Shown: piece by piece, positions 14,704-44,471 of the stretch
How positions within the stretch are numbered: the stretch's first letter is position 1
Layout of the letters: each line of letters opens with the position of its first letter
Assembly (NCBI RefSeq): GCF_054482595.1
Contig: NZ_CM137008.1
DNA length: 64,000 nt
Reading direction: 5' to 3' (one strand)
Program-made: the position numbers and the translations under genes
The notes under the pieces: generated by a model
What the model was told of the DNA's origin: nothing
Database searches by the model: none
Seen by the model: the letters and a program-made list of their open reading frames with translations, nothing else

Positions 14704-14793
14704 TCACTCTGCCAGATGGCGCAATGCTATCTGGTATCACTTAAAGGTATTAAAAACAACTTTTTGTCTTTTTACCTTCCCGTTTCGCTCAAG

Positions 14794-14808
14794 TTAGTAT
14801 AAAAAAGT
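14794..14808. other. attR core (P-O-B' junction, tailspike side)
   Basis: ttagtataaaaaagt = reverse complement of lambda core GCTTTTTTATACTAA with one substitution at the phage-side end; preceded by host cgctcaag, followed by lambda-P-arm-like sequence. Confidence 0.85.
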
Positions 14809-14954
14809 TGAATGTGAAACGGTAAAAACAATTAATATCAACAGCTTATAATTGATTCAGTCTAAAAAATAGACTGCATAATGCTACAAAACACAACATA
14901 TCCAGTCACTATGAATCAACCACTTAGATGGTATTAGTGACCTGTAACAGAGCA

Positions 14955-14996
14955 TTAGCGCAAGGTGATTTTTTTGTCTTCTTGCGCTAATTTTTT
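14955..14996. terminator. lambda sib/tI-like hairpin in residual b-region
   Basis: ttagcgcaag N20 cttgcgctaa followed by tttttt; resembles lambda sib retroregulator region as recalled. Confidence 0.5.
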
Positions 14997-15340
14997 GTCA
15001 ACACACTGGGTTAGCTGAATTTACAACCATGCTCAGTATCTCGATAAGCGCAGAGAAATGATGCAGTGGTGGGCGGATTGGCTTGATGAAAAAGTAGAGT
15101 GAGCGACCTTAATAACTATCGAATAGCACAAAGCCTTGCAGTCCAGTACAAAGCTTTGTGTGCATCAGTTTTGTCTTATCAACCACAGCAAGTCATCGAT
15201 CGATTGAGACTTGGATGATAGACTTCATGTCTTTGATTATTAGCTGACAAAAGAAATGTTAAAGCTATTTGCAAAGTACACCTCGATTGGCGTGCTGAAC
15301 ACACTTATACACTGGGTGCAACGGAATCCCAGGCGCACTA

Positions 15341-17266
15341 TTATTTAGCTTGAACCGTTAATATTTTCCCTCCAGAATATTCTGTAAGATTACTTATTTC
15401 ATTAGCCAAAAGCGCTTTGAACATATTTCGGTCCTGCCCGAAAACAACGCCAGAAAAGAAAGTCCCAAGGTTGCGGTAGCCGCCTACGGTCGGCATACGG
15501 ATAAACAGGTAAGACGTACCCTCGTACGTGCCGGTAAACCAAGCATCATAATCTGTGAGAGATTGGTTATCACAGTGAGCAGCTCTAACTAATTTTGCGC
15601 GGGTAGAGATATTGCTGCCTACTGTATTAAGGTCATACGCACCCGATATAGGATTAAGATCTTCCCCGCTGCGTAATGTATAAATAGTCCCAATGCACCC
15701 TCGTTTCCCATACTGACCACCAACGATACGATAATACGGCCCAGCAGACTGGTCTGGATTCGGCAACGCCATATCCCGACACATAGTGGTACTGAACGTT
15801 GGTATGGTTGCCAGCCCACCAAGATTACCTAATGTAGCGAAAGTTGCAGTTTTCGTGTCGTATGAATTCCTTTGAGGCCACGACGTTTCAAACTTATTGC
15901 TGTACACGATTTCTAACTTAGCACCGTTAGTTAAACGGGCCATCGCGCCATTGAAAGTAGTGGTCGAGCTGGCAATTAGTTGCTTAATACTTACTTTAGC
16001 ATAACCAGATAGGTCAAACATGTAGCTACCTGCAGCCTGCGTTTGATCGTACAGATGTATATTATCTATCTGTAAGTTAGCCCCGGTGCCCTTAATAATC
16101 GTACCGCTGTTCTGACGTGAAGGTTGTTCACAACCTAAAGACGAAATGCTGTACGAGCCTGCGTTAAAAATATACGGAATCCCAGCGCAATCGTCAGCGG
16201 CTAATGGACCAATTTCACAATATGAGCCCGTCAACTCAAAGGCACAGTAGTTTGTTTTAAACGCGTTACATTGGGATACTACGTAGCTTGCCCCCCCATG
16301 TATATGAATACCACCATATATCCCGGTAGCGTCGGAACCTTGGACAACGATTTCGCGGATGGAAACACCAACGAAGGTATTGCCGCCAAAATACATCCCC
16401 CATTTTTGCGCAAGGATAAACAGATCACTAAATTCCTGGTATACGGCGGTATTGGGAGTGTAATACCCGTAACTATCCGTTGTATCGTCCAGGATGCGTA
16501 GTCCACGGACAACATTACCACGTTTACCCTTGTTATAGAAAACAGCGTTAATATCCTGAGTTCCTACCGCCGTTTTGCGAATAATGGATGCACGACCCTC
16601 CCCGACGAATCGGCTACCATTTGGTTGATAGTATTTCTCATTGTAAACATCTTCCAAATCGTAAAGAAGAATAGAGTCCGATATCTCATATTCGCCAGCG
16701 GGCACAAATATAGTTTTTCCCAGTTGCGCGGATACAAGCGATGCTCGATTAAAAGAGAGCGTCCAATCTGGATCTGAATCCAGTTTAAAGTCCAGTACAG
16801 AAATAGTTTCAGAGTTTTTCTGGTGTTGCGTTCGATTTACGGCCCCGTTAAATGGTTGCCGAACAGCTATCTTCGCATCATTAACAATAGTAGGACCATA
16901 GTCTTGCGCCAACTCTGACCTTAGTTGATCAGGGTCATACTTAAGCACATTCGGAAAATAGAACTGCTGTGCACCATATGCATCATAAACAGCCATAGAA
17001 TGGCCTTGCACAGTTACGAACTTGGCAATCTGTCCGTTATATACAGGATACCCGCCAGCGTTAATGATGATTGGCTGTGCAACAGGAACGTGAGAACCGT
17101 CTTCATTCTCTACATAAACCTGAATCTGGTTTTCAGGATTTACCGGGTCAGTGTCAATTTTTCCGATATAAATTTTGCCATTGGCAACCGCTTTAAAAGA
17201 ACGCGCCATAGTGAAGAGTTGCGAAGGCATACTCACTACAACATTGGCATTTATTGAATCTGTCAT
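15341..17266 (-). CDS. P22-type tailspike (641 aa): conserved N-terminal head-binding domain, divergent receptor-binding body
   Basis: N-terminus [62 protein letters not shown]... closely parallels the P22 gp9 head-binding domain (recalled); remainder is beta-helix-like with different sequence. Confidence 0.85.
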
Positions 17267-17465
17267 TTAATTTGCTCCAGATACAAGGAATCGCCGCAGC
17301 ATGGCTACGGTTGATGTTTGTTGCATACCGAAATGGTACGATTGTTGATTTGTACAGTAGGTTTTACGATGCCATTCCACCCATTTGGTGAGGCATTGAT
17401 GATGTACAGCAAATACGATGAGGCGCAGTTCCACTTCGGCATAATGCCATATTTTTTCTTTGCCA

Positions 17466-18194
17466 TTATGCAACATTACTCCCATGAATCAGGTGTTGTA
17501 GTGCTTTAACACCTTCCTCATTGTAGCGGAATGCTTCCACCTGTTTGCTGGAATGCGCAGATTTATCCAGGAAGAACTTCCCGTACTGCTCAGTTTTGAG
17601 GTTGTTTGCGTTAGCAATGCGACCAATCTTGTTGGCCGTTACCCCAAGCTGCTCTGCAACCTCCCCTGCTGAGTAGTAATGCTCTTCTATTGCTGGAAGA
17701 GGTATTGCATTAAAACCAACGATCGGGTTGATTATGCTTGCTGCCGCAGTCTGCTTTGCTTCCGGCGCAAGATTTGGCATCAAATCGAACAGATTGGTAA
17801 CAGCTTCAACCGTCATTTTCAATGTTCGCGCCTGGCGATACTCAACAAGTCCACTAGACGATTTACCGCTTTTAATGTGCGCTTCTTGCATACTTTCAAG
17901 TTGGTCTACAAGTGAGCGGCGAACAGCTTTAGATTCACGAGCAGCCACTCGAAGGGCTTGCTTAATTGACATAACAACTTTTTCAGAAGTTGTCTTGTTT
18001 GATTTTTGAACTACGAAAATTTCGTAGTGCTCACCTTCAAGTTCATCCTTAATGCGTGCAATAAAGTCGTTATTGCGGACTTCTTTTTCCCCGCACTGTC
18101 TACGAGCATGATTGACCATCTCTAACAGGTACTGGCTATCAATGGTTTTATCCGTGACAACGGATCCGATGTTTGCTACATTCTTAAAAGTCAT
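17466..18194 (-). CDS. Putative antirepressor-like/regulatory protein (243 aa)
   Basis: ORF 17466..18245 trimmed to ATG at 18194 with AAGGA RBS; C-terminal region loosely resembles KilA-C/ORF6C-type antirepressor tails; sits between ant and tailspike. Confidence 0.35.
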   Translation of the reverse strand: MTFKNVANIGSVVTDKTIDSQYLLEMVNHARRQCGEKEVRNNDFIARIKDELEGEHYEIFVVQKSNKTTSEKVVMSIKQALRVAARESKAVRRSLVDQLESMQEAHIKSGKSSSGLVEYRQARTLKMTVEAVTNLFDLMPNLAPEAKQTAAASIINPIVGFNAIPLPAIEEHYYSAGEVAEQLGVTANKIGRIANANNLKTEQYGKFFLDKSAHSSKQVEAFRYNEEGVKALQHLIHGSNVA

Positions 18195-18282
18195 TAGGCA
18201 TTCCTTATGTGGTAGTAAGGGTGTGACATAGGCCGCCAGCAGCACACTGGCGGTTTTCTTTTTGCGCCGTCCGGCGCACCAA

Positions 18283-18909
18283 TCAATGAATCCATTCCTC
18301 GCCGCGCAGTTTTGCCAGCATTGGCTGAGCGTTCTTTACGACAAAATTGTTGGTATCAAGATTCTTCATTTCACGAAGAAGTGATTTCTTGGTTTCTTCT
18401 GACATGTAGCGAGTCTCATATGCAATATCGTAAATCCTTCCTGAAAGCTCAGAACCAATTTGCTTCATTCCTGGGTAGATGTGTTTGCACATTTGTTGAC
18501 TCTTCTCCATCCACAATTGTAAGTAGCAGAGATTAACCAGTTCTTCGTCAGTAAACTGTTTTGCAATCGGTGAGCATTCTGCCTGCCGATCCAAAATATC
18601 CAGCACCCAGCGGCGGAACTCTTTGGCTACCTGAGTGCGAGCAAACATCGCGATTAGGTGGGCACCGCGTAGTGAGAAAACACGCACTTTTTTGCGATAA
18701 TTTCCTGAGGTACTCACTTCGAGTACCTGAGTCATTCCGGCGCTAAACTCATCGCTATACTTGTTATAAATCATTGTTACTGCACGACTATTTGCGTATT
18801 TAAGTGCAGATGCAATATTAGATGATGTAAACCAAACACCATGCATATCACGGGTGGGCACCAATTCAACTCCGTGGAAGTTATAATCTGATTTTGCTAC
18901 AATATTCAT
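18283..18909 (-). CDS. ant: Antirepressor with Bro-N domain (about 208 aa; start uncertain)
   Basis: FHGVELVPTRDMHGVWFTSSNIASALKY...FSLRGAHLIAMFARTQVAKEFRRWVLDIL is Bro-N-like; ATG at 18909 has AAGGAA RBS; longer frame to 18993 would overlap arc. Confidence 0.6.
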   Translation of the reverse strand: MNIVAKSDYNFHGVELVPTRDMHGVWFTSSNIASALKYANSRAVTMIYNKYSDEFSAGMTQVLEVSTSGNYRKKVRVFSLRGAHLIAMFARTQVAKEFRRWVLDILDRQAECSPIAKQFTDEELVNLCYLQLWMEKSQQMCKHIYPGMKQIGSELSGRIYDIAYETRYMSEETKKSLLREMKNLDTNNFVVKNAQPMLAKLRGEEWIH

Positions 18910-18982
18910 GTTAGTTTCCTTGCATACGGTTACTGACATAGAGGCCCGGTTTGTGTTCACGCACTGCCGGGCTTCACTATTT

Positions 18983-19156
18983 TTACTGGGCATTAGCTCT
19001 TTCCTCTCTCAGGCTTTTAGCCAGTCGCTGCACAATCGCAGAGTTGATAGAAATTCCATCCATTTCAGCAACACGTCTAATCTCCTCCTTCATTCGCGCT
19101 GGCAAACGAAGCTGGAAACTTTGACTTTTACGACCTGTGTAAAGCACATCTTTCAT
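18983..19156 (-). CDS. arc: Arc-like ribbon-helix-helix repressor (57 aa)
   Basis: MKDVLYTGRKSQSFQLRLPARMKEEIRRVAEMDGISINSAIVQRL resembles P22 Arc (MetJ/Arc RHH fold). Confidence 0.7.
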   Translation of the reverse strand: MKDVLYTGRKSQSFQLRLPARMKEEIRRVAEMDGISINSAIVQRLAKSLREERANAQ

Positions 19157-19183
19157 AAGTAATCCTCCCACAATGATACCAAC

Positions 19184-19199
19184 TTGGTTCTAGAACCAA
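19184..19199. promoter_or_regulatory. immI operator candidate: perfect 16-bp palindrome
   Basis: TTGGTTCTAGAACCAA in the divergent arc-mnt intergenic region. Confidence 0.6.
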
Positions 19200-19267
19200 T
19201 TTAACACCATTTATTTTGATGTCAAGTTGGTGCTATTGTTTAGCGAACATCTTTACGTTGAGGTCAT

Positions 19268-19588
19268 ATGAGCAAGTTCCCTAGTCATGAAATGGATAGG
19301 TTCAATATCAGGCTTCCTGCAGGAATGCGGGATGCTATAGCTGAACGAGCCAAACGTAACGGCAGATCAATGAACTCAGAGATTGTTCAGATACTGGAAG
19401 ATGCCTTGAATGCAGAAAATACACTCGGGGAAATAGCAGATAAAATCAACAGCGTCTCGGTTCCGCTAAATGTTGATGCGCTAGTTCAACTTCAAGCCCA
19501 GGTTATCGCCATGCAAAAAGAAATACAGGAAAAGTTCAGAGAGCAGAACGAAAAGTTGAGAGAACTGCTAAACAAAAAAACCACCTGA
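19268..19588 (+). CDS. mnt: Mnt-like repressor (106 aa)
   Basis: N-terminal RHH motif FNIRLPAGMRDAIAERAKRNGRSMNSEIVQILEDAL and C-terminal coiled coil ending KKTT, as in P22 Mnt (recalled). Confidence 0.75.
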   Translation: MSKFPSHEMDRFNIRLPAGMRDAIAERAKRNGRSMNSEIVQILEDALNAENTLGEIADKINSVSVPLNVDALVQLQAQVIAMQKEIQEKFREQNEKLRELLNKKTT

Positions 19589-19612
19589 CGGTGGGTTAAT
19601 TTTTGCCTTTTT
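19579..19612 (+). terminator. Rho-independent terminator after mnt
   Basis: aaaccacc tgac ggtgggtt followed by T-rich tract. Confidence 0.6.
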
Positions 19613-19686
19613 TGGACCATATTGACTACTCATAAAATGAGATCAATATTTAATCGCCCAATAACGGGTGCATGTTGAGGTATATC

Positions 19687-19866
19687 ATGGCGAAAAAACC
19701 AGGTGAAAACACAGGAAAAAACGGCGGAATATACCAAGAAGTTGGCCCGCGCGGAGGTAAGAAAGACAATTTTGCCACCGTCAAGGACAACGAAAGGCTT
19801 CCGCCAACAACAAAGCCAGGTCATGGCTGGGTATTAGATAAGCGAACTCCAGACAGCAAAAAGTAA
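19687..19866 (+). CDS. Small Gly/Lys-rich protein, YjzC-like (59 aa)
   Basis: ATG at 19687 with GAGG 6 nt upstream; MAKKPGENTGKNGGIYQEVGPRGG...LPPTTKPGHGWVL resembles YjzC-family small proteins (recalled, low certainty). Confidence 0.45.
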   Translation: MAKKPGENTGKNGGIYQEVGPRGGKKDNFATVKDNERLPPTTKPGHGWVLDKRTPDSKK

Positions 19867-19879
19867 TAATCAAGCCGGG

Positions 19880-20245
19880 TCACTCCGGCTTTTTGATATG
19901 TCGCTCGCAGAACTCAACAAGCCTGCTCATTAAGTAGCAGTAAGTCTCGTTGGCTCTTCCTGGTTCAACATCAACGCCGACCCTTGAGCAGATATCGAAT
20001 GCCATGTGAGCGCACTCATGGGCAATAGTAGATAGTTTGCCATTGAACACACCTATCACATGCAAAACACCATTCTCGCTGCTCATTGTATGAGACGCTC
20101 CGTTGGCATCCGAGTCCTGCACGTCCACGCCAAGTTTTTGATGCAGGCGTTGCCATTCTGGAAAGTCTCTGCAAAACACAATTGTACCGCTCTCAAAGAG
20201 CGGAACGAGCATTTTTGGTACGTTTCCAATGTTAACTTTTTTCAT
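19880..20245 (-). CDS. Hypothetical 121-aa protein with HExxH motif (possible minimal zinc metallopeptidase)
   Basis: ATG at 20245 with AGGA RBS; translation contains IAHECAHMAFD (HExxH) and a downstream Glu; no TM segment; stop lies inside hairpin 19871..19893. Confidence 0.5.
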   Translation of the reverse strand: MKKVNIGNVPKMLVPLFESGTIVFCRDFPEWQRLHQKLGVDVQDSDANGASHTMSSENGVLHVIGVFNGKLSTIAHECAHMAFDICSRVGVDVEPGRANETYCYLMSRLVEFCERHIKKPE

Positions 20246-20275
20246 GGTATCCTGCTCAAAACTAAGGAGGTTGGT

Positions 20276-20464
20276 GTGAAGAAAAAATTTGTAAACGTTG
20301 CAAAGTGCGCAATTTTTATATTTTTTATGACCTTTTACGGATTTAGTGCCGGAGAAGGTTTCGATCGTGATGCCAATGCATTCAGTTTCTTTTGTCTGTC
20401 TATAGTGGTCATAATTGTATGGGTGGAATTAAAGCAAACATTGTTTCATGTGCTAGGGAAATAA
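20276..20464 (+). CDS. Small membrane protein (62 aa, GTG start)
   Basis: AAGGAGG 5 nt upstream of GTG at 20276; two hydrophobic helices (AKCAIFIFFMTFYGF, FFCLSIVVIIVWV). Confidence 0.4.
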   Translation: MKKKFVNVAKCAIFIFFMTFYGFSAGEGFDRDANAFSFFCLSIVVIIVWVELKQTLFHVLGK

Positions 20465-20481
20465 CCATCCATGGCATTTAG

Positions 20482-22347
20482 TCACTGCTGTGTTGCCTCA
20501 GTGGCAAGCAGCGGTCTGATGGCATTTGCAGCGTTACTTAATGCTCTTTCATAGGCTGGCGTTCCTGCTTTGGTGTTTGCCAGACGTAAGAGCGCATTCC
20601 TGGCCATAGGGCTTTCATAAACCCTCGACATAAGGCCAATCCCTGTTTCCCCAGCCAATAGCGCGCCTCCGGTTTTTAGGTTACCAATAACCCTTACCAA
20701 AGGCGCGAGTGTCATGCCAGTCTTCGTCACAACATTAGCCTCAGATGCTCTTTTGGTAGCATCGAGAATAGATAACATCCCCTCTATCTCTTTTCCGTTC
20801 TTCCCACCAAATACAGTTTTAAACACCTGACCATTTGCTTGTTTTTGCAGCTTGCCAAGCTCGGTCATCATTTTCTGAGGGCTGTCACCTACCTTGTCAG
20901 CTATTTTGCTGATATATGCCGCCCTTAGCATGTCTTTACCTTTTTGATCGAGTTTCCCGTACAATCGAGCTATATCTGACCCATATTGTCCATACACAAT
21001 GGTATTTACAGCCTCGGGAGTTAAATCTCCTTTGTTTAGAACGTTTTTAAGGCGCGTTTGAGTTGCATGTGTTGCCATTTTTGCATAATCAGCTTTTCCC
21101 GCTCTCCATGCTGAAGCATCTTTTGGGCTAAGTCCTTTCGCTATAGATTTACTAAGGCTATTGGTTAGCGAGTTATAGACCCTGTCGACCATTGTTTGCG
21201 ACATTGATGGCAGAACTGTACGATCGCCTTTTACGTCAATGCGGAACTGAGTTCTCAGCTTATCAAGTAACTCAAAGGCATCATCTCCATTTGTTATCTC
21301 CTGAATGGCATTCTTATAATCATTAAGCGCAGAAATGGTCTGGGTGTCAGAAACACCTTTAAGTTTCCCAAGTTCGTTTACTGCTCCGTCGATAGCTCTT
21401 ATGGCGCCACTTGTATCAACTGGCTTTCCAACCATTCTTCCTGACAGGCTGTTTAGTTTTGACTTGGCTAACGATTTTTCCCTTGCAACGCCTGACTTTA
21501 GACTATCAACGACTACAGATGGATCGTAGTCGCCGTATTTTTCGGTGAAGCGATTAACAAGCTTGGTTCTGGCATCCTGCTGTGCGGCTCTCATTGGTCC
21601 AGTACCAGCTATGACTCCTTCTGAGTAACCCTGCAGTTGATTGCCAAGTTTTGTTTTTGGAGGAACTACATCTGATGTCATAACTGGTACATCTGCCGCA
21701 GCGGCACGCTTGAGCAATTGCTGATCTGCTGGTGATATTTCGCCACGAACAGCAGTAATTCCACGCCCTATTCCCTTTGCTGCTGCGGAAAGAACACCCT
21801 GAGCGGCAAGGTTAACTCCGGCATTTTTAGCTGCATTTTGTGCGAAATCGCCTTTCTGATTTGCGGCCTCTGCCAGTGATCCAATAGCCATGCTTCCTGC
21901 CGTTCCAACTCCTGGAACTAAATACCCGCCAATTGTTTCTCCAGCTTGCGCATAAGGGTCTGTCGGTCGCTCGACAGGGCGATAAACATCATCCAAAACC
22001 TTGGGGCCGCCAAGCCCCTGGCTGATTGCATTAATCAGACTTGCGCCACCCTGCAATACGTCAAATGGTATGTTTACCAGACCGCGACCAGCCTGCTCTG
22101 CAATTTGCCCTGCACTTTGACCACCAGTGAGCCAATCGCCAGCTTGTTGCATCAATGATGGTTCTTCTTTCTGCTGCTGAGGCGGAGGGTATGCTGCATA
22201 AAACTGATCTCTTGCTTCAGCCCATTTGTCACCAGCCTTAGGGGCAACAACCTCATCAAAATATTGCGCTTGAGCCTGTGCTTTCTGTTCTTCAGTTAAC
22301 GCCTGATACTGTGGAGAGGCGATAACATCTTTCCATGCTTTAGCCAT
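20482..22347 (-). CDS. P22 gp16-like ejection (internal virion) protein (621 aa)
   Basis: Size and order after gp20; last gene of the P22-type ejection-protein set. Confidence 0.75.
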   Translation of the reverse strand: MAKAWKDVIASPQYQALTEEQKAQAQAQYFDEVVAPKAGDKWAEARDQFYAAYPPPQQQKEEPSLMQQAGDWLTGGQSAGQIAEQAGRGLVNIPFDVLQGGASLINAISQGLGGPKVLDDVYRPVERPTDPYAQAGETIGGYLVPGVGTAGSMAIGSLAEAANQKGDFAQNAAKNAGVNLAAQGVLSAAAKGIGRGITAVRGEISPADQQLLKRAAAADVPVMTSDVVPPKTKLGNQLQGYSEGVIAGTGPMRAAQQDARTKLVNRFTEKYGDYDPSVVVDSLKSGVAREKSLAKSKLNSLSGRMVGKPVDTSGAIRAIDGAVNELGKLKGVSDTQTISALNDYKNAIQEITNGDDAFELLDKLRTQFRIDVKGDRTVLPSMSQTMVDRVYNSLTNSLSKSIAKGLSPKDASAWRAGKADYAKMATHATQTRLKNVLNKGDLTPEAVNTIVYGQYGSDIARLYGKLDQKGKDMLRAAYISKIADKVGDSPQKMMTELGKLQKQANGQVFKTVFGGKNGKEIEGMLSILDATKRASEANVVTKTGMTLAPLVRVIGNLKTGGALLAGETGIGLMSRVYESPMARNALLRLANTKAGTPAYERALSNAANAIRPLLATEATQQ

Positions 22348-23711
22348 TAATCACCCCATAGTGAAGAAAAGTTACTGCCGGCTGCTGGCTGTGATACCTG
22401 TGTAGGTTGAGATTGCTGCCGCTGAGATTTACCAACATTAACGTTATATTGTTGGTTGTAATTGTCGGTATATTGCTGAATGTCGCGCATTGATTGTTGC
22501 AGTGCTTCAGGGCTTGAGAAATCAACCTGTGGCATACCTTGAAAATACATCTTTGCTTCTGCAACGGTGTTGATACCGGATGCCCCCATGTCTCTGGCTG
22601 CTGCAATGCCCTGATTCTGCATCTTTCCTTGGATTCGCTGTGCAGCGTTGTATAGTTTCCTCTGATCACCACCAGATGCACGGCTACGAATATCTGCACC
22701 AAGAGCAGGAGAACCTGAAGAGCCTGTAATGCCAGTCATGAAGCCAAGATCGTCAATTGATGCACCAGAAATTGCATCAAGATCTTTCTTCATTGCGTAA
22801 TTCTGCGCACTTGCTGCCGATGTAGCCGGAGCGGCAATAGAGCCAGCAGGAACGCGAACCATATTCCCCTCGTTGTCGATACCTTCGTAGAACGCATTAG
22901 CCCCAGCGCCGTGAAGCTTCCCGCCTACCGTTACAGTTCTGCCATCTGCTAACTGAACTGTACGCTCATTATTCCCAACCGACCCTTTCATTGATGCTCT
23001 CTGCATCGATAAATCCTGACCGCGCATCGTGATATTCTGACCACGTGCTGTTAGCGCCTCTCCAGCCTTATTGCTGCGGATTGTCTCTGCCAGCTGGCCT
23101 CGGTCAATCTCACGACCAACCATCTTATCCTGAACAGCAAACGCCTTTTCTGGCCCAAGTGCACCGAGAGACATAGTAGTCAGCATGTGTGATAACTGCT
23201 CTGGATTCTGGATACCTGTCTGAATCATCCAGTCAGCATTCGCACCCACGCGATTTAACCTGTCCTTGTTGTCAGTAATGAATTTACTGTAGGCTTCCGG
23301 TCCCTGAGAAAGAGCAACGTTAGCCCTCATGGCTAAATCGCCCATATCGTTGCGTTGCTGCTCATTAAGACCGGAAAACGCCTGTTGTGCCTGTGCAACA
23401 AACGCTGGATTTTCCTGGGCAAACTTAAATAGTCCCGATGGATCACCAGAAGCCCATGCATCAGCGTGAACCTTATTGAACGCACTAATCGCTTTCTGTT
23501 GCTGTTCCTGCTTATAAATATCAGCAACTCCAGCCAGACCACGTAACGCGGTCAGACCAACGTTATTTGCACCTGAGCGAGCCAGTTCATTGTTTTCGCG
23601 GATCAGACCAAGCGTTGCGTTAATGTCGCTTGCCTTTGGCGCATTCTCATTTTGCGTACCGATGCCAGCCAGAAAACCACCAGAATTAATACCCTGTTGC
23701 CACGTAGCCAT
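22347..23711 (-). CDS. P22 gp20-like ejection protein (454 aa)
   Basis: Position between gp7 and gp16; Gln/Ala-rich translation. Confidence 0.7.
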
Positions 23712-23721
23712 TGATTACCCC

Positions 23722-24414
23722 TTAAAACAACGAGCCAAGCAGACCAAGACCGCCGCCGATCGCAGCCCCCCACGGAGTTGATGAACCAATTAATTTCGCA
23801 AGTCCGGCCCCAGCAATAGCACCAGACGCACCTCCGCCAATAGCAGATTGCATTGCTGATGGTCTGTTGGCATTTGCCGCTGCAAGAGCCGCACTTTGCT
23901 GCGAAATCTGACTCATATTGTTGGCATATGTTTGCCCGGCGTTTGCCTGACCTTGCAGTGCGCCAAGACCAATATTTGCCAGATTCTGGTAGTTGTTCAT
24001 CTGACCAGATAGCCATTGCTGACCAAGCGTTGGTGCGATTGTTGCTAACTGATTACCGGTTGCAGTGGAACCCAATCCACCTGTTGCTTCCGCTGCCGCC
24101 AGACTCTGATAGCGAGCCTGACCAGCAAGATCTTTGTACTGCTGAGAGTTGTAATACTGGTTAAGTGCCTGACCTTGCCCTTCCAGAGACGATAAGTTCT
24201 CGAGGCTGTCGACATACTTATCAGCCAGAGGAGTAAACGGCTTCAGGTTGTTCATGATGGTGTTGAACTGCTGATTTTGCAGGTCTGCGGCATACTTCTG
24301 GGCTTCTGCTGCATACTTTGCGCTTTTATCAGAGCTACCACCTTTCCCGCCTTTTTCAGGGCAATAAGGTTCCTCGCCGCGCAGTTTTCTGCCCAGCTTA
24401 AATGCATATAACAT
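23722..24414 (-). CDS. P22 gp7-like ejection protein (230 aa)
   Basis: 230 aa, Gln/Ala-rich with Gly-rich hydrophobic C-terminus; position after gp14. Confidence 0.7.
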   Translation of the reverse strand: MLYAFKLGRKLRGEEPYCPEKGGKGGSSDKSAKYAAEAQKYAADLQNQQFNTIMNNLKPFTPLADKYVDSLENLSSLEGQGQALNQYYNSQQYKDLAGQARYQSLAAAEATGGLGSTATGNQLATIAPTLGQQWLSGQMNNYQNLANIGLGALQGQANAGQTYANNMSQISQQSAALAAANANRPSAMQSAIGGGASGAIAGAGLAKLIGSSTPWGAAIGGGLGLLGSLF

Positions 24415-24416
24415 GG

Positions 24417-24872
24417 CTATCTCCCGTGATTCAGGAAGTCGATTAGTTCTTCGCGTGTGGCGCTGTAAAACGTCACGTCATCCACGCCTTTGAAGTATTT
24501 CTTGATGGTTCCTACACGATTAAGGCCAATCATTGCGCAATACATCTGACCGTGGCGGAATTTGCGTGCGGCGAACGATGTGACGCACTGAACGGTGGTG
24601 TTAGTCAGAATGTATCGCCAGAACGCCAGCCCGATTTCCTTGCTGAATCCACGAACCTCTGGCAGGTACATGGCGTGGCAATCGAATGTCAGCGGCTGAA
24701 TCTCCTGATAGTAAACAATGCCGCCGAACTGCCCGTGCACGTTCACCTCAAAGTAACGGCAATCATGTTTATAGTCGTATCCATCACCGTTGTTGCTCCC
24801 GGCAATAATGTCAGGGTGATTTCCGACTGCTTCTATCAGGTCGATGTTTCGCGTTGGTTTGAATGTAATCAT
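24417..24872 (-). CDS. gp14-position virion protein (151 aa)
   Basis: Position between tail needle gp26 and gp7 in the P22 gene order; assignment positional only. Confidence 0.5.
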   Translation of the reverse strand: MITFKPTRNIDLIEAVGNHPDIIAGSNNGDGYDYKHDCRYFEVNVHGQFGGIVYYQEIQPLTFDCHAMYLPEVRGFSKEIGLAFWRYILTNTTVQCVTSFAARKFRHGQMYCAMIGLNRVGTIKKYFKGVDDVTFYSATREELIDFLNHGR

Positions 24873-25573
24873 CAGTCAATCAACCCATGAGTCCGTAATG
24901 CATCTTCCAGAGCTTTGATACGCTGCCGCGCCTGCTGCAATCCTGTAGCCATAGCCGACACCTCAGACCGTGTGTATGTGGCACTTACCGTGTATGTCTG
25001 GTTAGCGTTGAATGAGCCGCGAAGAGCTGTACCTGTAGCCGCTGTCCACCCTGTCTGACGAGCACCAATAACCTTGGTGCCGCCGACCGAATAGGATGTT
25101 GTTACATTGAGGGGAGATGCCAGCGATTGTGTTGCAGTGGCTGTTTTCGATACATAGTCGTCCTGTAATGCAGAAATGTTGCTCTCAGCAGTCGTAACCC
25201 GGCCATCAAGAGCGCTGACGTCAGCCTGTAAAGTGACTATTTCTCCTTCAGCCGTGGTTAGTCTGACATCCAGCGCTGCAATTGCCGCAGTATTCGCAGC
25301 AATACGGATTTCATGGTCATCTACTTCAATGCGGAGCTGACGAATTCTTTCTTCGTGATCGACCAGAATCACATCCTGCTCATCATTCCTGACTTGTGCG
25401 TCATAAGCGCCCTGTCCGGCCTCGTTGGCCTTGTTCGCCACGTTACCAACATCAGTACCCTGTGCGATAACGTACAGCAGATACGACTGCGAGAAGATAT
25501 TACGTGGAAGTATTGATGTATCGAGCCGCGTCGCCTGGATGATTACCGGCACATTGAGATTCGAATCCGCCAT
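24872..25573 (-). CDS. P22 gp26-like tail needle (233 aa)
   Basis: [43 protein letters not shown]...[13 protein letters not shown] parallels P22 gp26 along its length (recalled). Confidence 0.85.
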
Positions 25574-26991
25574 TACTCAATCCTTATCTGAGCGCCAGAC
25601 AGAGTGACAGGTGACTTCGTGATAACGCGCAATTTGAAGCCAATGTTTTTCCTGATGCGCCCTACTTTCTTCCACAAAACGCGTTTGTCGTAAACGAACG
25701 GTTCATTCTGCTCAATCATCTGCTCACGACCGTAATTGATGCCGTCAGTGGTTGCAGAGAGGAACAGGCGGTCAGCGTACTGCGCAACGCCAGTTGACGA
25801 TTCAACCTCAAAGTCAAACACTCTGGCGTTATCCGCTTTGAACAACGGAGTAAACAGCAGGTGTTCCTGCTGCTTGTCGTACTGGCTGCTGATATCGAAC
25901 TGCAGTTTCCCGGTAACAGATTCCAGCTTATCGCCGCACGTTATCTGATTGCCTTCGTAAATGAAGTCGATAGCGCGGTACACATCGTCATACAGGCCTG
26001 TTTTCAGTACACACCATTGCGGACCATTGGAGCTTGAAGATGCGTCGTACACCAGAACATGGCGCGGAAGATGGATAATCAGCAGCTCATGCGCATCAAA
26101 TCGCAGAGACTCCATCACACCATCAGCCAGTTCATCAGCAGTGTAGGAGCGGAGAATTTTCTCAATGCTCGCGCTGGCGATTGGTGATACCTGACCGGAG
26201 CCGATGATATACACAGACGGCGCACCTGTTGCCGGATTGCTGATGAACGCATACGAATCAGCAAACGGCGTTTTGCAGTAAGTCCCGGCAATGCCTTTCT
26301 GCACCATCAGCGATGGCTGTGCGACATACAAAGCGGCACCAACGGTGGTTGCCCCCGTCAGGGAGAAATATTCAATCGTCGATGAACCAAAGCAGACGAT
26401 GAAGTCTCGCCATGTGCCGATGCCGATGATGCCGTCCGGCTGCGATTCTGCGCGATATTGTGCGCTGTAACGGTCAGGATGCGATTCGTCTTCAAGGTCA
26501 GTGATAAACCATGAATCAGTACCGTCTTTTGACCACGCATAACGCCCACGTAAGCGTGTAATGTCGCGGACTGAACCTAACTCATACTGCGTAAATCCTC
26601 TGTCTGTAGGCCAGTTTGAGACGGTTTTAACCGTGCCATCATAGCGATACTCGACCAGTTGACCATTAACGCCTACTGCCTGTGATGTCCTACCGTGTGC
26701 CATTGATACGCGACCACTTCCGGCAACATCACCGACCTCGCTTTCGCCCTTATACAGCTTGCCGCCACACACGCGATATACAGCATTCTGCGCCATGTTG
26801 TACTCGACGCCGCGCGATACACCGTTCACATCAGATCGTTTGGCAATGCCCGGGAATGAGCGAAGATATCCGCTGCTGTTGAGGATTTCTTTGGGTGTAG
26901 CCAACATATTCACTGGCAGATAGTCGGTATAGTCGGAGTTTCGAAAGTCTTTGCCGACACCTTTCATAAGCGGAAGTTGCTGAATCGGCAT
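25573..26991 (-). CDS. P22 gp10-like tail hub protein (472 aa)
   Basis: 472 aa, same length as P22 gp10; position between gp4 and gp26. Confidence 0.75.
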
Positions 26992-27492
26992 TTATTCGCT
27001 CCCGTTATCGCAAGGTTCCTTCCGGTGGAAGTAATTCCAACCGTTCCACTTCGCCAACTGATTACCGCTACCAACAGGCATACGGTTTGGATAACCGGAC
27101 TTACATTTAGCAGCTTTTGCTCTGTCCATTGCAGACAGTTTGACGAGTCGCTCTTTCCCGTATCTGGCAGTGGTTATAAGTTTTGCAGACGCTTCCAGCG
27201 CATAATCTGGAGCAATGCGGCAGGCAAGGTTGAAAATGACGGCATTTATAGCGTTATTTGATAAGCCGTGCTCATCGCCCGGATCTGGAGCGACATCTGC
27301 ATCAGCAAAAATGTAGCCAACGTTGATCCCAGGTGACGCATCACCGCCAAGCCATTCAGCCATCATCATTTCAAGGTCGTTGACGCCGTCTTCCATAGAC
27401 TGCGGTTCGACATCGGTTAACGTGGCATTTGATGCCACACCGAGCTTACGTAATGCCGCAAGAACTAAATCACCCTTCGTTGTCAGGTTCAT
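26992..27492 (-). CDS. P22 gp4-like tail adaptor protein (166 aa)
   Basis: ORF trimmed to [33 protein letters not shown]..., parallels P22 gp4 (recalled). Confidence 0.75.
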
Positions 27493-27706
27493 CTGCTGCC
27501 GCCTTAGGTTTTCGACCAGGCTTTTTACGCTGTTTTTCTTCTGGCTCTGGCTCCGGCTCTGCAACATCCTTCAAAAGGTCATCAGGATGTGAAAACCAGC
27601 CAGCATCCAGATATTCCTGAAGCTCTTCGGCTTTCACGATTTCAAAGTCGTATCCAACGCCTTTCCATTTCTTCATGTCGCCATGACGAAAGATCATGTG
27701 TGTCAT
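27470..27706 (-). CDS. Small charged protein (78 aa) between coat and gp4
   Basis: ATG at 27706 with GGAGA RBS directly after the coat terminator; Pro/Glu/Lys-rich tail; overlaps gp4 start by 23 nt. Confidence 0.4.
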
Positions 27707-27718
27707 GCTTGTCTCCAG

Positions 27719-27743
27719 ATAAAAAAGGGAGCCGAAGCTCCCT
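27719..27743 (-). terminator. Rho-independent terminator immediately downstream of coat gene
   Basis: minus strand gggagc ttcg gctccc followed by tttttt. Confidence 0.7.
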
Positions 27744-27750
27744 CTGGTTA

Positions 27751-29046
27751 TCACGCGGTCTGGTTAGGCAGACCAACACCAATTGCCTCTGGTCGTACAG
27801 CACATGCTGAATACCACACAGCAATACGGCACTTACCAGACAGAGTGTTGATATCACCCTGCGTTGCGAAGATGCCGTTAACACCAATGCCAGGAATGCT
27901 GAAGGAAGACGTTTTCATACCAGCAAACAGTTCATGGGTTACCGGGATAGGCTGAGACAGCAGACGGATTGAGTCATCAGCCCAGAACACGTTAGCGGTG
28001 GTCGTTGCCACGTTCAGAACGTTTACCGGAGTGGTATCAGCAAGAGAGGTGTTTACGTTAGCGTAAGCCTTCTCTTCTTTTGTCAGTGACGCGTCATCCA
28101 GTGCAATCGGTTTCGGCGTGATTTCGATGTGAGTACCATCGATCACACGGGTGATTGAGAAAGTCGCATCATCAGTCAGCACGTTCTTCGCCATCTGAGA
28201 CAGGAATTTCACACCAGTGAAACTGATTTTGTCGCCGCGCTTAAATCCGGTGGTGGAGGATACGGTCACCGTTGCAACACGGTTGTCGACGTTCTCTTTG
28301 TTACCATCGGTATCAAGGGTGTATGCCTGCGGCTTAAACTTCTGCGCACCAGAAACAGTTACACCAGTAGCGGTTGACTTGGTAACTGCCGGAAGTTTCG
28401 GTGAGCGAAGAATTTCATCAAAGCCAGCAATCTGACGCTGAATAGTACCGTTGTGATACGCATCTTCAGGAACGCGCCCGAAGATGTCACCATCTACAAG
28501 ATTGCGGCCTGCTTTGCGGTAATCGTCAGGGTTCAGGAAGTAACTGATACCCATGTCGCGGTTGAGTTCGCGGGAGAACATCAGTCGCTCTGCATCAGAC
28601 ACAAAATCCCAGCCAGACAGGCCAGTAGATGGACCAATTGCGCGGGTATCGTGAACAACAAGTGAGCCCATTTCGGTTGCCTGTTTGGCAATTGCTGACT
28701 CAATGTTATTCGCCAGTTTTTTGGCGGATGCCTGGATGCGGCGACGGTAAGAACGCTCATCACGCAGGTCATCTGCACGAAGCTCGAAGAAATCGTTATC
28801 CGGATCGCCCATGTTGCACTTCACGGAGAGTTCCAGAATCCCGGTTGCGTTGCCAGTTAAATCCCAGCCAGTCTGGGTTGGCGCTTCCTGCTCAACAGGC
28901 ATCCACACGGTGTTGCTTGAACGCTGCATGGATTCTGCCGGAGGGGTGTATTTTGTCACTTTGGACGCCATTGGCGTCAGGTTCTGGACGGTTTCGATGA
29001 TTTCATCCAGAGCATACGTGACCAGTTGACCTTCATTTAATGCCAT
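27751..29046 (-). CDS. P22-type major coat protein gp5 (430 aa)
   Basis: [54 protein letters not shown]... parallels P22 coat protein throughout (recalled). Confidence 0.9.
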
Positions 29047-29957
29047 TATCGAATTCCTTTATTCAGTTGCGCCTTAAGCTTGCGGTACGTCTCTACATCC
29101 CCTTTGTTTGCTGCCGCTTCCATCTGCTTTTCAATCGCAGAGATATTTGCAGCAACAGCGTGTCCCTGAATGGGTTCATCAGGTAACGGGGCTTCTGAAA
29201 CAGGCTTGGCTCGAGGCTTGAGAGTTAAACGTTCTGACAGTCGAGTGAGTTCAATCAGCGCGGATTGCCCGTCCATCGCCAGCAACTGGCGTGTTTTCTC
29301 AGGATTAGCACCAAGGTGATACATGAGAGCAGCGGATTTCTCCGGGAAGAGGCGCATGATGTCGGCACCGACTGCTGGCGGCACCAGTTGCATGAATGCA
29401 TCCTCTTTCTCCTGATAGTCAGGGATATTGAGCTTTTCCGCTGCGTCGTAGTGCTTACGGGCTGCCTCGACGTATTGCGCTGATTGCTGGGTGAACTCCT
29501 GAGTTTTGCGACCCTGCTCGGCGACAGCCTGGCTTCGTGCGTCCATAGCCTTGATCTGCCATTCACTGTTTGCCTGCTGGAAGGCAGCCAGTGCTCGGCT
29601 CTGGTCATAGTCGTACTTAGCCAGCGCATCTTCGGAAAGATAATCGTTAGGGTCTGGTTGTTTTGGTAACTCAGGGTTCACCCGCAGGTGCTCCGGCAAC
29701 TCCCCACGCTTAACCGCTTCCATCTGCTGCTCAAGCTCACGCTGGCGTTTGCGTTCGATGCGGCGACGGGCAAATTCAGCATTAGTTGCCGGGTCTTGTT
29801 TTGGTTTCTCATCGTCTTTCAGGACAATCTCGAAGCCTTCTTCCTGACCTGCGTTGTCGTTGGCATTATCGACAACTAAGCCATCAGCAGATGCCGCTGC
29901 ATGATTGCCGGGCAGGGTTAATTCTTCAGAAGCCTGAATGTCGGTGGTTTGGTCCAT
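29046..29957 (-). CDS. P22-type scaffolding protein gp8 (303 aa)
   Basis: 303 aa, highly charged helical protein directly upstream of coat. Confidence 0.8.
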
Positions 29958-29970
29958 GGTTAACTCTCTC

Positions 29971-32136
29971 TTATTGAGGTGTCTCGGCTACTCCGCCGGA
30001 GGGGATTTGAACTTGACGCATAAGATTCGCGAAATCCATGCGTTGTGAATGAGTCTGGTCTGCATCTTTAAGAAGCAGCTCAGCGTTAGCACGAGCATCT
30101 TTGCTGCGCTGTTGCTGGAATTGACCTACGAGCTTGAGGTACTCACGCAGTTCTGCCTGCTTGTCGAGGTCCATATTGTTGAAGATTTCCGCAATCTTCG
30201 CGGCGTTGAGTTGGTTTTGGGCTTCAACCTTGGCGGCTTCAACCTGAATCTGCGCCTGTTGGTTCTCTGCCTTGAGCAATTCAGCCTGACCTTGCAGAAG
30301 GATACCCTGCGCCTGAATTTGCTCTGCTGATGGCTGCTGCGGCTGCTGTTGCGCCTGTTGTACCATCTCCATCTCTTCAGGTGTTTCTGGTTTCTTCAGC
30401 CCCATCATCACCAGTTGCTTGTTCGCGTACTCTCGCATCATCTCGACGCCTTTACCGTCAAGCAGCGTGAAGTATTGCAGCATCAGTATCTGGAACTCTG
30501 GAGTACCTTGCGGAACCTTGGTTAGTAATTCCTGAATCTCTGCGCGGTTCTGTTCCTTCATGCTCTGGAAGGATGGTCCAACGTCTGTATAGCACTCATA
30601 GCGACCACGAATGTCGTTGAGTGTGACCACATTGCCGGACTGGTAATCGACAACTTGCGCATAGAGTTGAACGTCTTTCTCGCTTCCATCTTCAAGTGTC
30701 AGCGTTACATGACGAGGAACGTCATAAATATCATTGACCATTGAGGCATAAATCTCGCCATCACGCCGCATTGCGGTAGCCAGGTTATCCTGAAACACGT
30801 ATGTCTCAAGGTCTGCCCGCATGTTCAGTTGATTGACAGTATCGAAAGCGACCTGAGAGTTTGCTGCCTGCGCATCCACGCCAAGACTAGCCACCTCTTT
30901 CACTGCGTTGGTGGCAGCCTCAAGCATGTAAGCGTTGGCTTGCGGCACTTCAGGGTTTTCCATGTAGGAGATTGGACCAATCGGCAGGTCGTTGCCGTTT
31001 TCATCGGTCTTGTTCTGCAAATAGTACGGATAGTCATCATTTCCACCGTACATGTATTCGTAGCCTTCGATTTGCTCAGGGAAGAAGGTCGGTTTCTTCT
31101 TCGGTGAACGAGCAACAATATCGGCGTTGAATGACATGATCATGTTACGAAGGCGTTGACCGTCTTTCGTCAGCCTTACCACTCCTTCGTAGCACTCCTT
31201 GTCACCAGCGAATGACCATTCTCCATACACTGGAACGATTGGAATATGCTCTCCGGCTATCTTCTCGCGGTCTTTCAGTATCTGCGTGCAGGTGATGATC
31301 GACTTATACACACGCCGACGCTTCACCTTGCGCTCTGCTACCTTCATGAATCCACGATTAGCCAGGTCGTCGATGACGTCTTTGATATCCTGCTGGTAAT
31401 AGCTGACCGGCTCACCTGTCAGCGGGTCGCGGTAGATGAAGACCTTCTCTTTCTTCTCTTCTACCTCGTAATACTCAGCGACGTAGACGACATCATTCGA
31501 TACCCACGGAAACAGCCATGTGTCGTTCGGATTCTGGAAAGATGGCAGGGTGTCAGGATCAATACCGTAATCCTCTGCGAACTCTTTCCAGCCATTGCGT
31601 GACAAAGCGTTAATCACCGTGCAGTGCTTAGCGTCGCTCTTATCCATCTGCTTGCTGTTGGCGTCCCATATGACGTGTGAGCAGGCTTCATGGATTGGCA
31701 GGCGTCGGATTACCTGATTGTTGCTTGTTGGATCGTTGTCTTCGTACTGCGTGACCAGACGCCATGCACCAACGCCAGACTCTATCTGCTCACGAACGCC
31801 AACGTTAACAGCAATCTTTGCCGTGTTATGGCGCATATCAGTACGATACATCCCCATCAACACATCGGCTGCATCAGGATTAGCTCCGTCTTTTGGTCTG
31901 AATAGAACGTCGATAGGGTTCCGGCGCATCTCTGCGACCAGTTTCCTGACCACTGGGCGAACAACATCGAATTGTCCGCGATATTGCAGGGTGGTGTAGT
32001 TTGATAGCCAGTCATCCCATTGCGACACTCGGCTAAAAAACAGGTCATTTGTCGCCTCGGTTCTGGCTTCATCGCTCGCCATCCAGTCTGCGTCAAACTT
32101 ACACAGAATGGAATTGAGTCTGTTTTCGTCGGCCAT
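29971..32136 (-). CDS. P22-type portal protein gp1 (721 aa)
   Basis: [45 protein letters not shown]... parallels P22 portal, including Gln-rich C-terminal barrel region. Confidence 0.9.
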
Positions 32137-33636
32137 TTAAGTTCTCCGTGCGATGGGCCTGATTGGGGCTGGTATCTTTTTCTCTTTTGGTTTTTTGATG
32201 TCGCGCATCATTTTGGCGAAGCGGCGCATCATGTATGCATAGCGAACAGCTGAGAGAACGTCGTCGTTAAGCTTGACGATTTTCCCGTTTTCATCACGGT
32301 GATAGAGGCGGAACTCCTCAAAGAATGGCTCACAGGTGTTGAATACTTTGAAGCGACCGTCGAGCATCATGTCTCGCAATTCAGTGATGCCAGGCTCAAC
32401 AGCATTACCGCCATCAGGCCATGTCGCATGCTCCTGCAACATCATAAATCCAGCGTCTGCATACTGCCCTTTGAGCTGCTCACCGCCGCCCTTCTCGTGC
32501 TGGTTTCCGTCATGAGGCCATGCTGTTGGCACTTTATGCGCCCATGATTTAACCGCTCCCCATGCCTGAACGGCTGTTTTTTCTTTCGCCTTCCACACGC
32601 GTGAAACGTAGATTGTGTCTGCGTCCTTATCCCACCAAATCTGAACCTGCGCCTGCGGGTGATCCCATCCGAAATCCATCCCGCCAATTACGTAGAAGTG
32701 ATCAGGACACTCGAACGGCTGACACTTAATCGTCTCTTCCGGTATCTGGAAGATTCGACCACTACCCATCGTAGGAATACCGCGAGCACGCGCCTCTCTC
32801 TCATGCTCAGGATAGGATGCGATGATTTGCTCTTTCTGCTCGTCGGTATAGTGCTCAGCGTCATAGATGGTCATGTTGACCACTTTCTGCGACTTGCTGG
32901 GATTCTTCAGGAACTTGGTAACAACGTCAGACATCCCCATCAGCGGGGTAAATGTCAGAATTGAGAATTGCCCGTATTTGTTGGTACGGGTAAGACCTTC
33001 GCCATAAATGCTGTATGGTGGCTCTTCGTCAAACCACACGCCGTGGATTGTGTCACCCTGCCAGCGAGCACGGCCTTGCGAGTATGGCTTGAAGTAGCAG
33101 ATTGAAATGCCATCTTCAACGCCATCAGCCGTGTGATGCTTAACCAGAAGATGATCAACAAGGTTCGGAAAGAAAGGAGACTTCTTCCAGCTAATGATGT
33201 CTTCTTTCGGTATGGAACCGTAGCCAGGCTCATCATTCTCTTCGATACGACCGCACAGGATGCGTTGAGTCGTTTTGGTTACAGTCTCGTTTGTCTCTCC
33301 ACCAATCCAGAAGACAACAGGCTCATAGAAACGCTTACCTTTCCACTCACCGCCATATTTACCATCAGCAGGATAGCCTTTTGTGCCCGGATAACGACCG
33401 GTAAGGTGAAACGCGACTTCAGCAGCACCAGTAAATGACTTACCAAGCTGGTTACCAGCCATAAAACATCGCTCTGGATAGTCATGCCCGGCGTCGATGA
33501 ACTCACGCTGCTTGCTGTATGGCGTAAATTCATATAGCAGGTGTGTGTTCCGGTAGTTCTCTTCTTCTTCGAGTAGCTCGAGCAACTCGATTTGCTCTTC
33601 GTCGCTCAGGTTATCAAGAATCGCGTCCAGTTCCAC
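32137..33636 (-). CDS. Terminase large subunit, P22 gp2-like (499 aa)
   Basis: 499 aa; ATPase and nuclease domains; position between terS and portal. Confidence 0.88.
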
Positions 33637-34102
33637 GGTTGAATAGCTCCTTGATACGAGAGCGCCGCTTATCGCGATCTCCCTTATCAGGTGTCACGTC
33701 TTCAACTTGCGACTGCTCTTTGAGGCCCAAATCACGGGCGATGATGTTAGCGTTGAGAAGGTCAGCGGCTGCGCCAGAGAATTTCTGGTCGTAGATGACC
33801 TGTTCTGCTCGCGTAACGACTTCAGATAAATCTTCTCGCAGGCGATATGTGCGCCATGTTTCAAGCGTCACATCAATGAACAGAGTGAGGCCGGTAATGG
33901 TCATCGCTCGCATCTTGGCGATAGGCTCTTGTATTACTTCACCCTGATACGAGAACGCCTTCATCTCCCATAGCGGGTTAGCTTCCACCCACTCGAAGTA
34001 TTCACAACAAGCAGCCCACAGCGCCTCAGGCGATTCGAATTTAGGATTTCGCCCATGACTACTGCGGGCCTCCCAAAATCGGTTGCCCTTTGGTGCTGCC
34101 AT
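33614..34102 (-). CDS. Terminase small subunit, P22 gp3-like (162 aa)
   Basis: [55 protein letters not shown]... matches P22 gp3 as recalled. Confidence 0.88.
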
Positions 34103-34181
34103 ATTGATTATTTCCCTTCTGCTTGCTTATCCCATTCATCGCGGAATTTGGATGGGTTGTCGAAACCTTGAGTTGCCATGT

Positions 34182-34424
34182 TTATGCTCCTGTAGTGAAC
34201 AGATCTAACGCTTCCTTCGATTTACGCACCGCTTCGATAGTGCGGGTCGTGATATCTGAATTAGCGCCGCCTGACTGGAAGTGAATTTTGAATAGCTCAA
34301 GCTTCAACTCGTCAGTGCCAATGAACTGAAATGCTTCTTCTGCGGCTGCGTTCTGGTTCATGACCAGTTTGTAAATCTCTAACTGGAATTTCTGTTCTTC
34401 AGTCATGGGAATAATCTCTGCCAT
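34182..34424 (-). CDS. Hypothetical protein (80 aa)
   Basis: Compact ORF upstream of terS; no recognisable motif. Confidence 0.4.
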   Translation of the reverse strand: MAEIIPMTEEQKFQLEIYKLVMNQNAAAEEAFQFIGTDELKLELFKIHFQSGGANSDITTRTIEAVRKSKEALDLFTTGA

Positions 34425-44464: not shown

Positions 44465-44471
44465 GTGTTAC

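Follow-up and report, generated by a model that had tools for sequence, protein, structure and literature searches.

The prophage in the window (by which we mean the whole 64,000-nucleotide stretch of DNA that was analysed) very probably carries, at its attR and in the corresponding attP, an ordinary, naturally occurring allele of lambda's attachment site, housed in a P22-like lambdoid genome. The allele is an established haplotype which lies two to four bases from those of the sampled element L032 and of phages mEp332 and PhiR70_1. A variable P arm beside a near-invariant P' arm is a general feature of the population and, as a result of this asymmetry, a canonical P' arm combined with a non-canonical P arm is to be expected in nearly every wild prophage of lambda type. 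The P' arm, int and xis look canonical because they are nearly invariant in nature.

The prophage is inserted at lambda attB, in the ybhB/ybhC interval, as judged from a reading of its two junctions and from comparison with E. coli MG1655. When the bacterial flanks are joined they give the uninterrupted MG1655 attB, and are collinear with it over 811 bp with 19 SNPs, none of which lies within 70 bp of the core. The host is an E. coli other than K-12. The left junction (+ strand, from position 14784) reads ...ttcgctcaag TTAGTATAAAAAAGT tgaatgtgaaacgg... and is the reverse complement of P-O-B'; the right junction (+ strand, from 56673) reads ...taatgccaac TTAGTATAAAAAAGC aggcttcaacgg... and is the reverse complement of B-O-P'. 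This orientation shows that the names attR and attL, which the first-pass annotation of the sequence had given to the two sites, are the right ones. In lambda orientation, that is on the minus strand of the window, attR is P-arm...TTCA-ACTTTTTTATACTAA-CTTGAGCG and attL is ...GAAGCCT-GCTTTTTTATACTAA-GTTGGCATTA... The sequence of the junctions suggests that the prophage ends are correctly placed and that the att sites look functional. The features of the prophage are collected in Table 1.

Table 1. Attachment-site elements and genes of the prophage, in window coordinates
Feature	Position	Strand	Basis and remarks
Whole prophage	14794..56697	.	About 41.9 kb, between attR and attL; junctions and attB reconstitution
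B' core-type half-site, bacterial	14790..14798	+	CAAGTTAGT; identical to MG1655
attR common core	14794..14808	-	ACTTTTTTATACTAA in lambda orientation; + strand TTAGTATAAAAAAGT
7-bp overlap	14797..14803	-	TTTATAC; identical in attR, attL, lambda attP and MG1655 attB
C core-type half-site, phage	14802..14810	-	CAACTTTTT; lambda CAGCTTTTT; variant at third base
Hypervariable P-arm stretch	14808..14887	-	-86 to -7; X1.5, X2/Fis, H2 and spacers, up to C
H2 IHF site (predicted)	14836..14848	+	TATCAACAGCTTA fits WATCAANNNNTTR; within-site differences from lambda at NNNN
Fis site (predicted)	14860..14874	-	GTCTATTTTTTAGAC fits GNNYRNNWNNYRNNC; lambda GTCTGTTTTTTATGC
X2 Xis site (predicted)	14866..14880	-	TATGCAGTCTATTTT; 13 of 15 bases as in lambda
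X1.5 Xis site (predicted)	14881..14887		GTAGCAT; lambda ACAGTAT
X1 Xis site (predicted)	14888..14900	-	TATGTTGTGTTTT; as in lambda
P2 arm-type Int site (predicted)	14903..14912	+	CAGTCACTAT; as in lambda
H1 IHF site (predicted)	14914..14926	+	AATCAACCACTTA fits WATCAANNNNTTR; one change, at NNNN
P1 arm-type Int site (predicted)	14933..14944	-	CAGGTCACTAAT; as in lambda
sib/tI hairpin, then U-run	14954..14997	+	Lambda alignment, RNA fold
HK620-type (P4-family) integrase 3' remnant	15019..15102	+	27 codons and stop; protein match
Tailspike	15341..17266		PHROG match
Antirepressor, first	17466..18245	-	PHROG match
Antirepressor, second	18283..18993	-	PHROG match
DNA-transfer protein	20482..22347		PHROG match
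Coat protein	27751..29046		PHROG match
Portal	29971..32136		PHROG match
Large terminase	32137..33636		PHROG match
DnaB-like helicase	41585..43036		PHROG match
CI-like repressor	44778..45515		PHROG match
xis, intact	55343..55561	+	72 aa; 6 nucleotide changes from lambda
int, intact	55539..56609	+	356 aa; 99.07% nucleotide identity to lambda
int codon 109	55863..55865	+	R109G
P' arm	56603..56682	-	100% identical to lambda
P'3 site	56606..56616	-	Lambda alignment
P'2 site	56617..56626	-	Lambda alignment
P'1 site	56627..56637	-	Lambda alignment
H' site	56645..56657	-	Lambda alignment
C' half-site	56679..56687	-	CAACTTAGT
attL common core	56683..56697	-	GCTTTTTTATACTAA in lambda orientation; + strand TTAGTATAAAAAAGC
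B half-site, bacterial	56691..56699		CTGCTTTTT; contains the attL G at -7

The genes of the prophage were named by their PHROG matches. Lambda's own virion, replication and immunity genes do not run through it, so that it is not phage lambda itself (Lambdavirus lambda). The closest phage records are P22-like: IME10, Huey, APC_JM3.2, UPF_BP1, P22 and the P22-like Salmonella phages, and no phage record covers at least 80% of either half of the prophage. It is a P22-like podovirus genome with a lambda-type sib-attP-int-xis module. The structural, replication and repressor ORFs which were sampled are full length and have strong family matches. The pair of antirepressor-family genes adjoins the tailspike gene, an arrangement which resembles the immI region of P22. 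A laboratory lambda or DE3-type lysogen was also considered, and is ruled out by the P22-like virion genes, the phage coverage and the 19 differences from K-12 in the 811 bp of flank.

Homology to lambda stops at about window position 15003, just past the sib/tI hairpin, the stems of which are those of lambda with a loop of seven A/T rather than five (two extra A). The RNA fold of this element has an energy of -31.3 kcal/mol (z = -3.1); a simple promoter and terminator scan called nothing at sib/tI, though the hairpin is clear both in the alignment and in the fold. The length of the loop run differs among natural alleles. Between the lambda-type sib and the tailspike gene sits an open frame, preceded by a stop codon, which encodes IYNHAQYLDKRREMMQWWADWLDEKVE and then a stop, and which has 100% amino acid identity to the C-terminus of the HK620 integrase. 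This remnant marks the left joint, where the lambda-type module entered a P22-like genome, and is a scar of module replacement. The same joint of sib with the HK620-type remnant occurs in PhiR70_1, mEp332, ev099 and IME10. The stretch from sib to the tailspike gene was also considered as a fossil attP of HK620 type; this was rejected, since the HK620 attP lies on the 5' side of int and only the int 3' end and what is downstream of it are left.

For comparison with lambda (NC_001416) the phage attP was rebuilt by joining attR and attL within the overlap (...TTCAACTTTTTTATACTAAGTTGG...) and aligned to the reference. The site coordinates, the IHF consensus (WATCAANNNNTTR) and the Fis consensus are what we take to be those of the lambda literature, and the layout of attP sites followed here is reportedly that set out by Landy in 1989. 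The lambda attP has been described as a set of 16 sites (PMC4880445). In a BLASTN search the window segment 14794–15100 matched lambda with 86.4% identity over 213 nt (E = 4e-63), and the homology is therefore far beyond chance. The first-pass annotation had held that the core and P arm at attR are variants of lambda while the P' arm at attL is canonical, and aligning both junctions with lambda attP and E. coli attB bears this out: the P' arm is wholly lambda's, while the P arm, far from being identical, differs at 27 of 137 positions (-143 to -7), without a single indel. The differences are unevenly spread. Lambda 27645–27724, corresponding to -86 to -7, has 25 substitutions in 80 bases and no indels; lambda 27534–27644, which covers sib/tI, P1, H1, P2 and X1, has two substitutions in addition to the two extra A of the sib loop. 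P1 and the core lie 138 bp apart in the window, as they do in lambda.

The 27 differences spare the bases specified by the consensus in P1, H1, P2, X1, H2 and Fis, the exceptions being two in X2 (-75 and -69) and one in C (-7); the change at -69 remains a purine within the Fis consensus. P1, P2 and P'1 to P'3 have the sequence, arrangement and spacing found in lambda, and H1, H2 and H' all match the IHF consensus, which also fits H2 in 22 of 23 natural alleles. The 5-mers flanking the Fis site, GTCTA and TAGAC, are exact reverse complements.

The core of attR differs from that of lambda at base 14808 (T for C on the + strand), which is position -7 in what we take to be Landy's convention, in which the 15-bp common core spans -7 to +7. 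In lambda orientation this base is A in attR and G in lambda; in attL it is G. Phage and bacterial sites consequently share 14 of the 15 core bases, the full GCTTTTTTATACTAA being broken at -7. Strand exchange by lambda Int takes place at the two ends of the 7-bp overlap, -2 to +4. Inverted core-type half-sites flank this overlap in both phage (C/C') and host (B/B'), and read directly they are CAACTTT for C (CAGCTTT in lambda), CAACTTA for C', CTGCTTT for B and CAAGTTA for B'. The A at -7 is thus the base already present in C' and B', and it brings C and C' closer to a perfect inverted repeat. At the third position of C the base agrees, too, with the core-site consensus CAACTTNNT, reportedly due to Ross and Landy in 1983.

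The first-pass annotation had set the two junctions against one another as a variant core and a canonical one. Because -7 falls outside the overlap TTTATAC, attR keeps the C site of the phage and attL the B site of the bacterium; the G of attL comes from that B site and not from the phage, and the junctions are therefore expected to differ at -7. The 15-bp shared core is a historical description of lambda and no mechanistic requirement.

We envisage that a lambda-type Int integrated the P22-like prophage at the classical lambda attB between ybhB and ybhC, with strand exchange confined to the overlap (-2 to +4). To the left of the overlap, attR (the C half-site with -7) would then be phage DNA and attL (the B half-site with its G) bacterial DNA, and excision would return the A to attP and the G to attB. 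The P-arm differences are confined mainly to the polymorphic stretch from X1 to C, and leave the arm-type Int, IHF and Fis motifs, the Xis site X1 and their spacing preserved. The attR/attL pair of the window is predicted to be still able to excise.

The variability of the arms in nature was assessed in IMG/VR, which was sampled with probes on the bacterial flank and core only; probes internal to the arm, used earlier, were biased and gave the same result. All 73 attR sites sampled have lambda-type P arms. Positions -86 to -7 fall into 53 alleles with a mean pairwise identity of 0.80 among the 70 attR sites that can be aligned without gaps; the corresponding values for -144 to -87 in the same 70 sites are 23 alleles and 0.956, and for positions +8 to +87 of the P' arm, in 138 attL sites, 17 alleles and 0.994. 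For int there are 72 unique alleles, with a mean pairwise identity of about 0.978. Diversity in the 80-bp patch is some 30-fold that of the P' arm, and no linkage is seen between the patch and int, which in the phage form lie no more than about 100 bp apart. In groups of prophages at most about 1% apart over the adjacent 2.8 kb, 57 segregating sites lie in the patch and 82 in the adjacent 2800 bp, a 24-fold density; the binomial probability of this excess is about 1e-50, a value to be read in the light of the sites being non-independent. In two cases a single patch substitution is the sole or nearly sole difference over 4–5 kb. The variable P-arm columns are those which the binding-site consensus motifs leave free. 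P1 and the core are 138 bp apart in 70 attR sites and 137 bp apart in three. In these three (of 73) the P arm has lost 1 bp from the T-run between H2 and C, so that its length is conserved without being strictly invariant.

Several accounts of this pattern are candidates. The patch may be exchanged as a cassette by way of the conserved blocks that flank it, possibly with the help of Int at the core; it may be under diversifying selection which tunes the readiness to integrate and excise; or there may be a local mutation bias. We suggest, tentatively and with some doubt, that the 80 bp from X1 to the core form a hypervariable, length-conserved cassette in wild lambda-type prophages, subject to frequent exchange or diversifying selection. 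No description of this P-arm polymorphism was found in the searchable literature, which covers little of the older lambda work.

Of the accounts that might be set beside a natural allele, the one which survives best is an origin by recombination, in which a lambda-like P' arm and int were combined with a non-lambda P arm through exchange between two lambdoid phages. The crossovers would lie in the two conserved flanking blocks, sib-P1-H1-P2-X1 and core-P'-int, and the right-hand one may have been mediated by Int at the core. We regard such an origin as possible, though on balance rather unlikely. It is a statement about the history of the allele, and is compatible with the allele being a natural one. 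Several observations speak for it. The divergence from lambda ends exactly at -7 and is then zero for 327 bp (lambda 27725–28051, comprising the core from -6, the entire P' arm and the int 3' end). In the 23 elements for which both arms are available the patches diverge by 19.7% and int by 1.8%, and the two are uncorrelated (Spearman -0.02, p = 0.8). Prophages at most about 1% apart over the adjacent 2.8 kb show replacements of the whole patch, 18 to 21 of its 80 positions differing. Lastly, one patch family is shared by the lambda-like siphoviruses mEp332 and PhiR70_1 and the P22-like prophage of the window.

Against this, the core and P' arm are near-invariant in all wild elements, so that a sharp boundary would appear under any history and locates no crossover. 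The haplotype moreover already circulates (the patch of L032 is two bases away), and an event particular to this lineage is unnecessary. The first-pass suggestion of recombination within the arm therefore holds in a general form only: the -86 to -7 patch appears, from sequence comparison, to reassort freely against int, the P' arm and the neighbouring late genes in the population, and nothing calls for an event special to the prophage of the window.

That the allele is an ordinary one is also seen from its distribution. Its C site (CAACT) is found in L015, L032, L157, L158, L161, PhiR70_1 (PV340577) and mEp332 (PV340541). In mEp332 the patch differs by three bases and in PhiR70_1 by four, and in both the P' arm is identical to that of the window. 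The GenBank record of mEp332 is cut at the prophage ends in MG1655; the phages of its set were maintained as prophages in that strain, with mitomycin C used for induction (PMC3442831). In IMG/VR, five attR sites besides the window have A at -7, all of related haplotypes (...TTTCACATTCAA), and among 70 wild attR sites, the window included, there is G at this position in 64 and A in six. The exact 90-bp attR (B', core and 65 nt of P arm) is present in four complete RefSeq E. coli genomes, and 206 of the 5426 complete E. coli genomes contain one of 95% identity or more. Lambda's own allele reaches the same threshold in about as many, 207, among which are many K-12 lysogens of laboratory origin.

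The integration proteins are those of lambda with few changes. Xis has a single difference, G59S, in its C-terminal tail; the DNA-binding part is identical, and S59 is the majority allele in nature. Int has four: R109G, which is private, and H164P, A245T and I248V, which are the natural majority. The catalytic residues R212, K235, H308, R311, H333 and Y342 are unchanged, and the residues that distinguish the specificities of lambda and HK022 (N99, S282, G283, R287 and E319) are of lambda type. The HK022 counterparts are reportedly D99, P282, K283, K287 and R319, as listed by Dorgai and colleagues in 1995. Neither these residues nor the HK022 core and overlap are found in the window, its core and residues being those of lambda.

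The A at -7 of the C site and the private R109G could together be taken as the beginnings of an att specificity that is new or relaxed, an idea which we consider improbable. R109G sets this Int apart from the 104 other lambda-type Int alleles in IMG/VR, and the exact protein is on record from one 5.1-Mb contig only. R109 is reported to contact the DNA backbone at the phosphate of the A that pairs with T20 in the 21-bp attB (PMC2831311), and by our numbering the T20 contact is at the second half-site position, beside the equivalent of -7; R109G has moreover been found in an Int selected in vitro with a changed target preference (PMC2831311). The substitution could weaken or alter core binding. 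On the other side, R109 is present in all five other elements with A at -7 and a known Int (L015/L146, L157/L224, PhiR70_1, mEp332, and c15 with its near-identical int), and among the Int alleles compared no residue covaries with -7A; R109G is therefore taken as a recent mutation and not as coevolution. Both the attB and the overlap used by the prophage are the standard ones, the specificity residues 99, 282, 283, 287 and 319 are of lambda type, and a substitution known from one genome is explained more simply as a mutation that arose recently in a resident prophage and is neutral or slightly deleterious. A lesser reading has R109G as an adaptive alteration of core recognition. Of the proposal first made for the site, that of a lambda-family att with an altered Int core-binding site, the family and the changed base in the C site stand; a change in specificity seems unlikely, given that the overlap is intact, that the A is the base of C' and B', and that working phages share it.

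Slightly less probable again is that attR is the eroded site of a grounded, defective prophage which can no longer excise. The many P-arm differences from lambda and the private Int substitution are what decay might produce, but the differences pass over the bases which the binding sites specify and do not alter the spacing; alleles within two to four bases occur in inducible phages and in hundreds of genomes; and int and xis are full length, as are the structural, replication and repressor ORFs that were sampled, with strong family matches. An error of sequencing or assembly, at the core base as well as in the arm, is scarcely credible, the identical 90 bp being found in four independent complete genomes with close relatives in more than 200, and the same C site in GenBank phages and IMG/VR contigs.

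Taken as a natural allele, the site can be compared with those of known phages. With lambda (NC_001416, about 27,480–27,820) it shares attB in the gal-bio interval, the overlap TTTATAC, the P1-to-core distance of 138 bp and the sib/tI hairpin, together with C', H', P'1–3, P1, H1, P2 and X1, which are identical or conform to the consensus; there are four amino acid differences in Int and one in Xis. It differs in having A rather than G at -7 (a 14-bp instead of a 15-bp common core), in 25 of the 80 bases between X1 and C, and in the P22-like nature of the rest of the genome. Phages mEp332 and PhiR70_1 are lambda-like siphoviruses of 46–49 kb whose Int has R109 and K264, where that of the window has G109 and E264. 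The attP of phage 434 (M60848; OL657226), which presumably shares the att specificity of lambda, is 89.5% identical to that of the window over 302 nt; this is closer than lambda, and its patch is a different allele. With 434, natural variation of the P arm in the lambda att family is already on record. The HK022 attP has the P1 block and arm layout seen in the window and differs in its core (ATCCTTTAGGTGAA...) and attB. As regards the HK620/Sf6-type module of P22-like phages, the virion genes in the window are P22/HK620-like and int is reduced to the 27-codon remnant; the HK620-type integration module is nonfunctional here, having been replaced by the lambda-type sib-attP-int-xis. For annotators, this is a P22-like phage using lambda's integration module.

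The canonical sequence of laboratory lambda is one among many found in the wild, and it serves poorly as a reference for wild att sites. When natural elements are compared, lambda's P-arm patch, Fis site, Int H164 and I248, and Xis G59 all prove to be either unique or in the minority. The contrast which the P arm makes with the P' arm could be used to study how much change the att architecture tolerates and how modules are shuffled among lambdoid phages.

Some further observations may be recorded. Among the Int alleles from IMG/VR, laboratory lambda stands apart at H164 (P in 103 of 104) and at I248 (V in 102 of 104), and it is also unusual at Xis G59 (S in most) and in its Fis site (GTCTGTTTTTTATGC, as against GTCTATTTTTTAGAC in many wild alleles). 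In four of the sampled elements the P1 block is identical and the core is of HK022 type (ATCCTTTAGGTGAA...), the P-arm architecture thus spanning two core specificities. An attR probe made from lambda's allele matched 1631 of the 5426 complete E. coli genomes, which suggests that in roughly 30% of complete E. coli genomes the lambda attB is occupied by a prophage of lambda att type.
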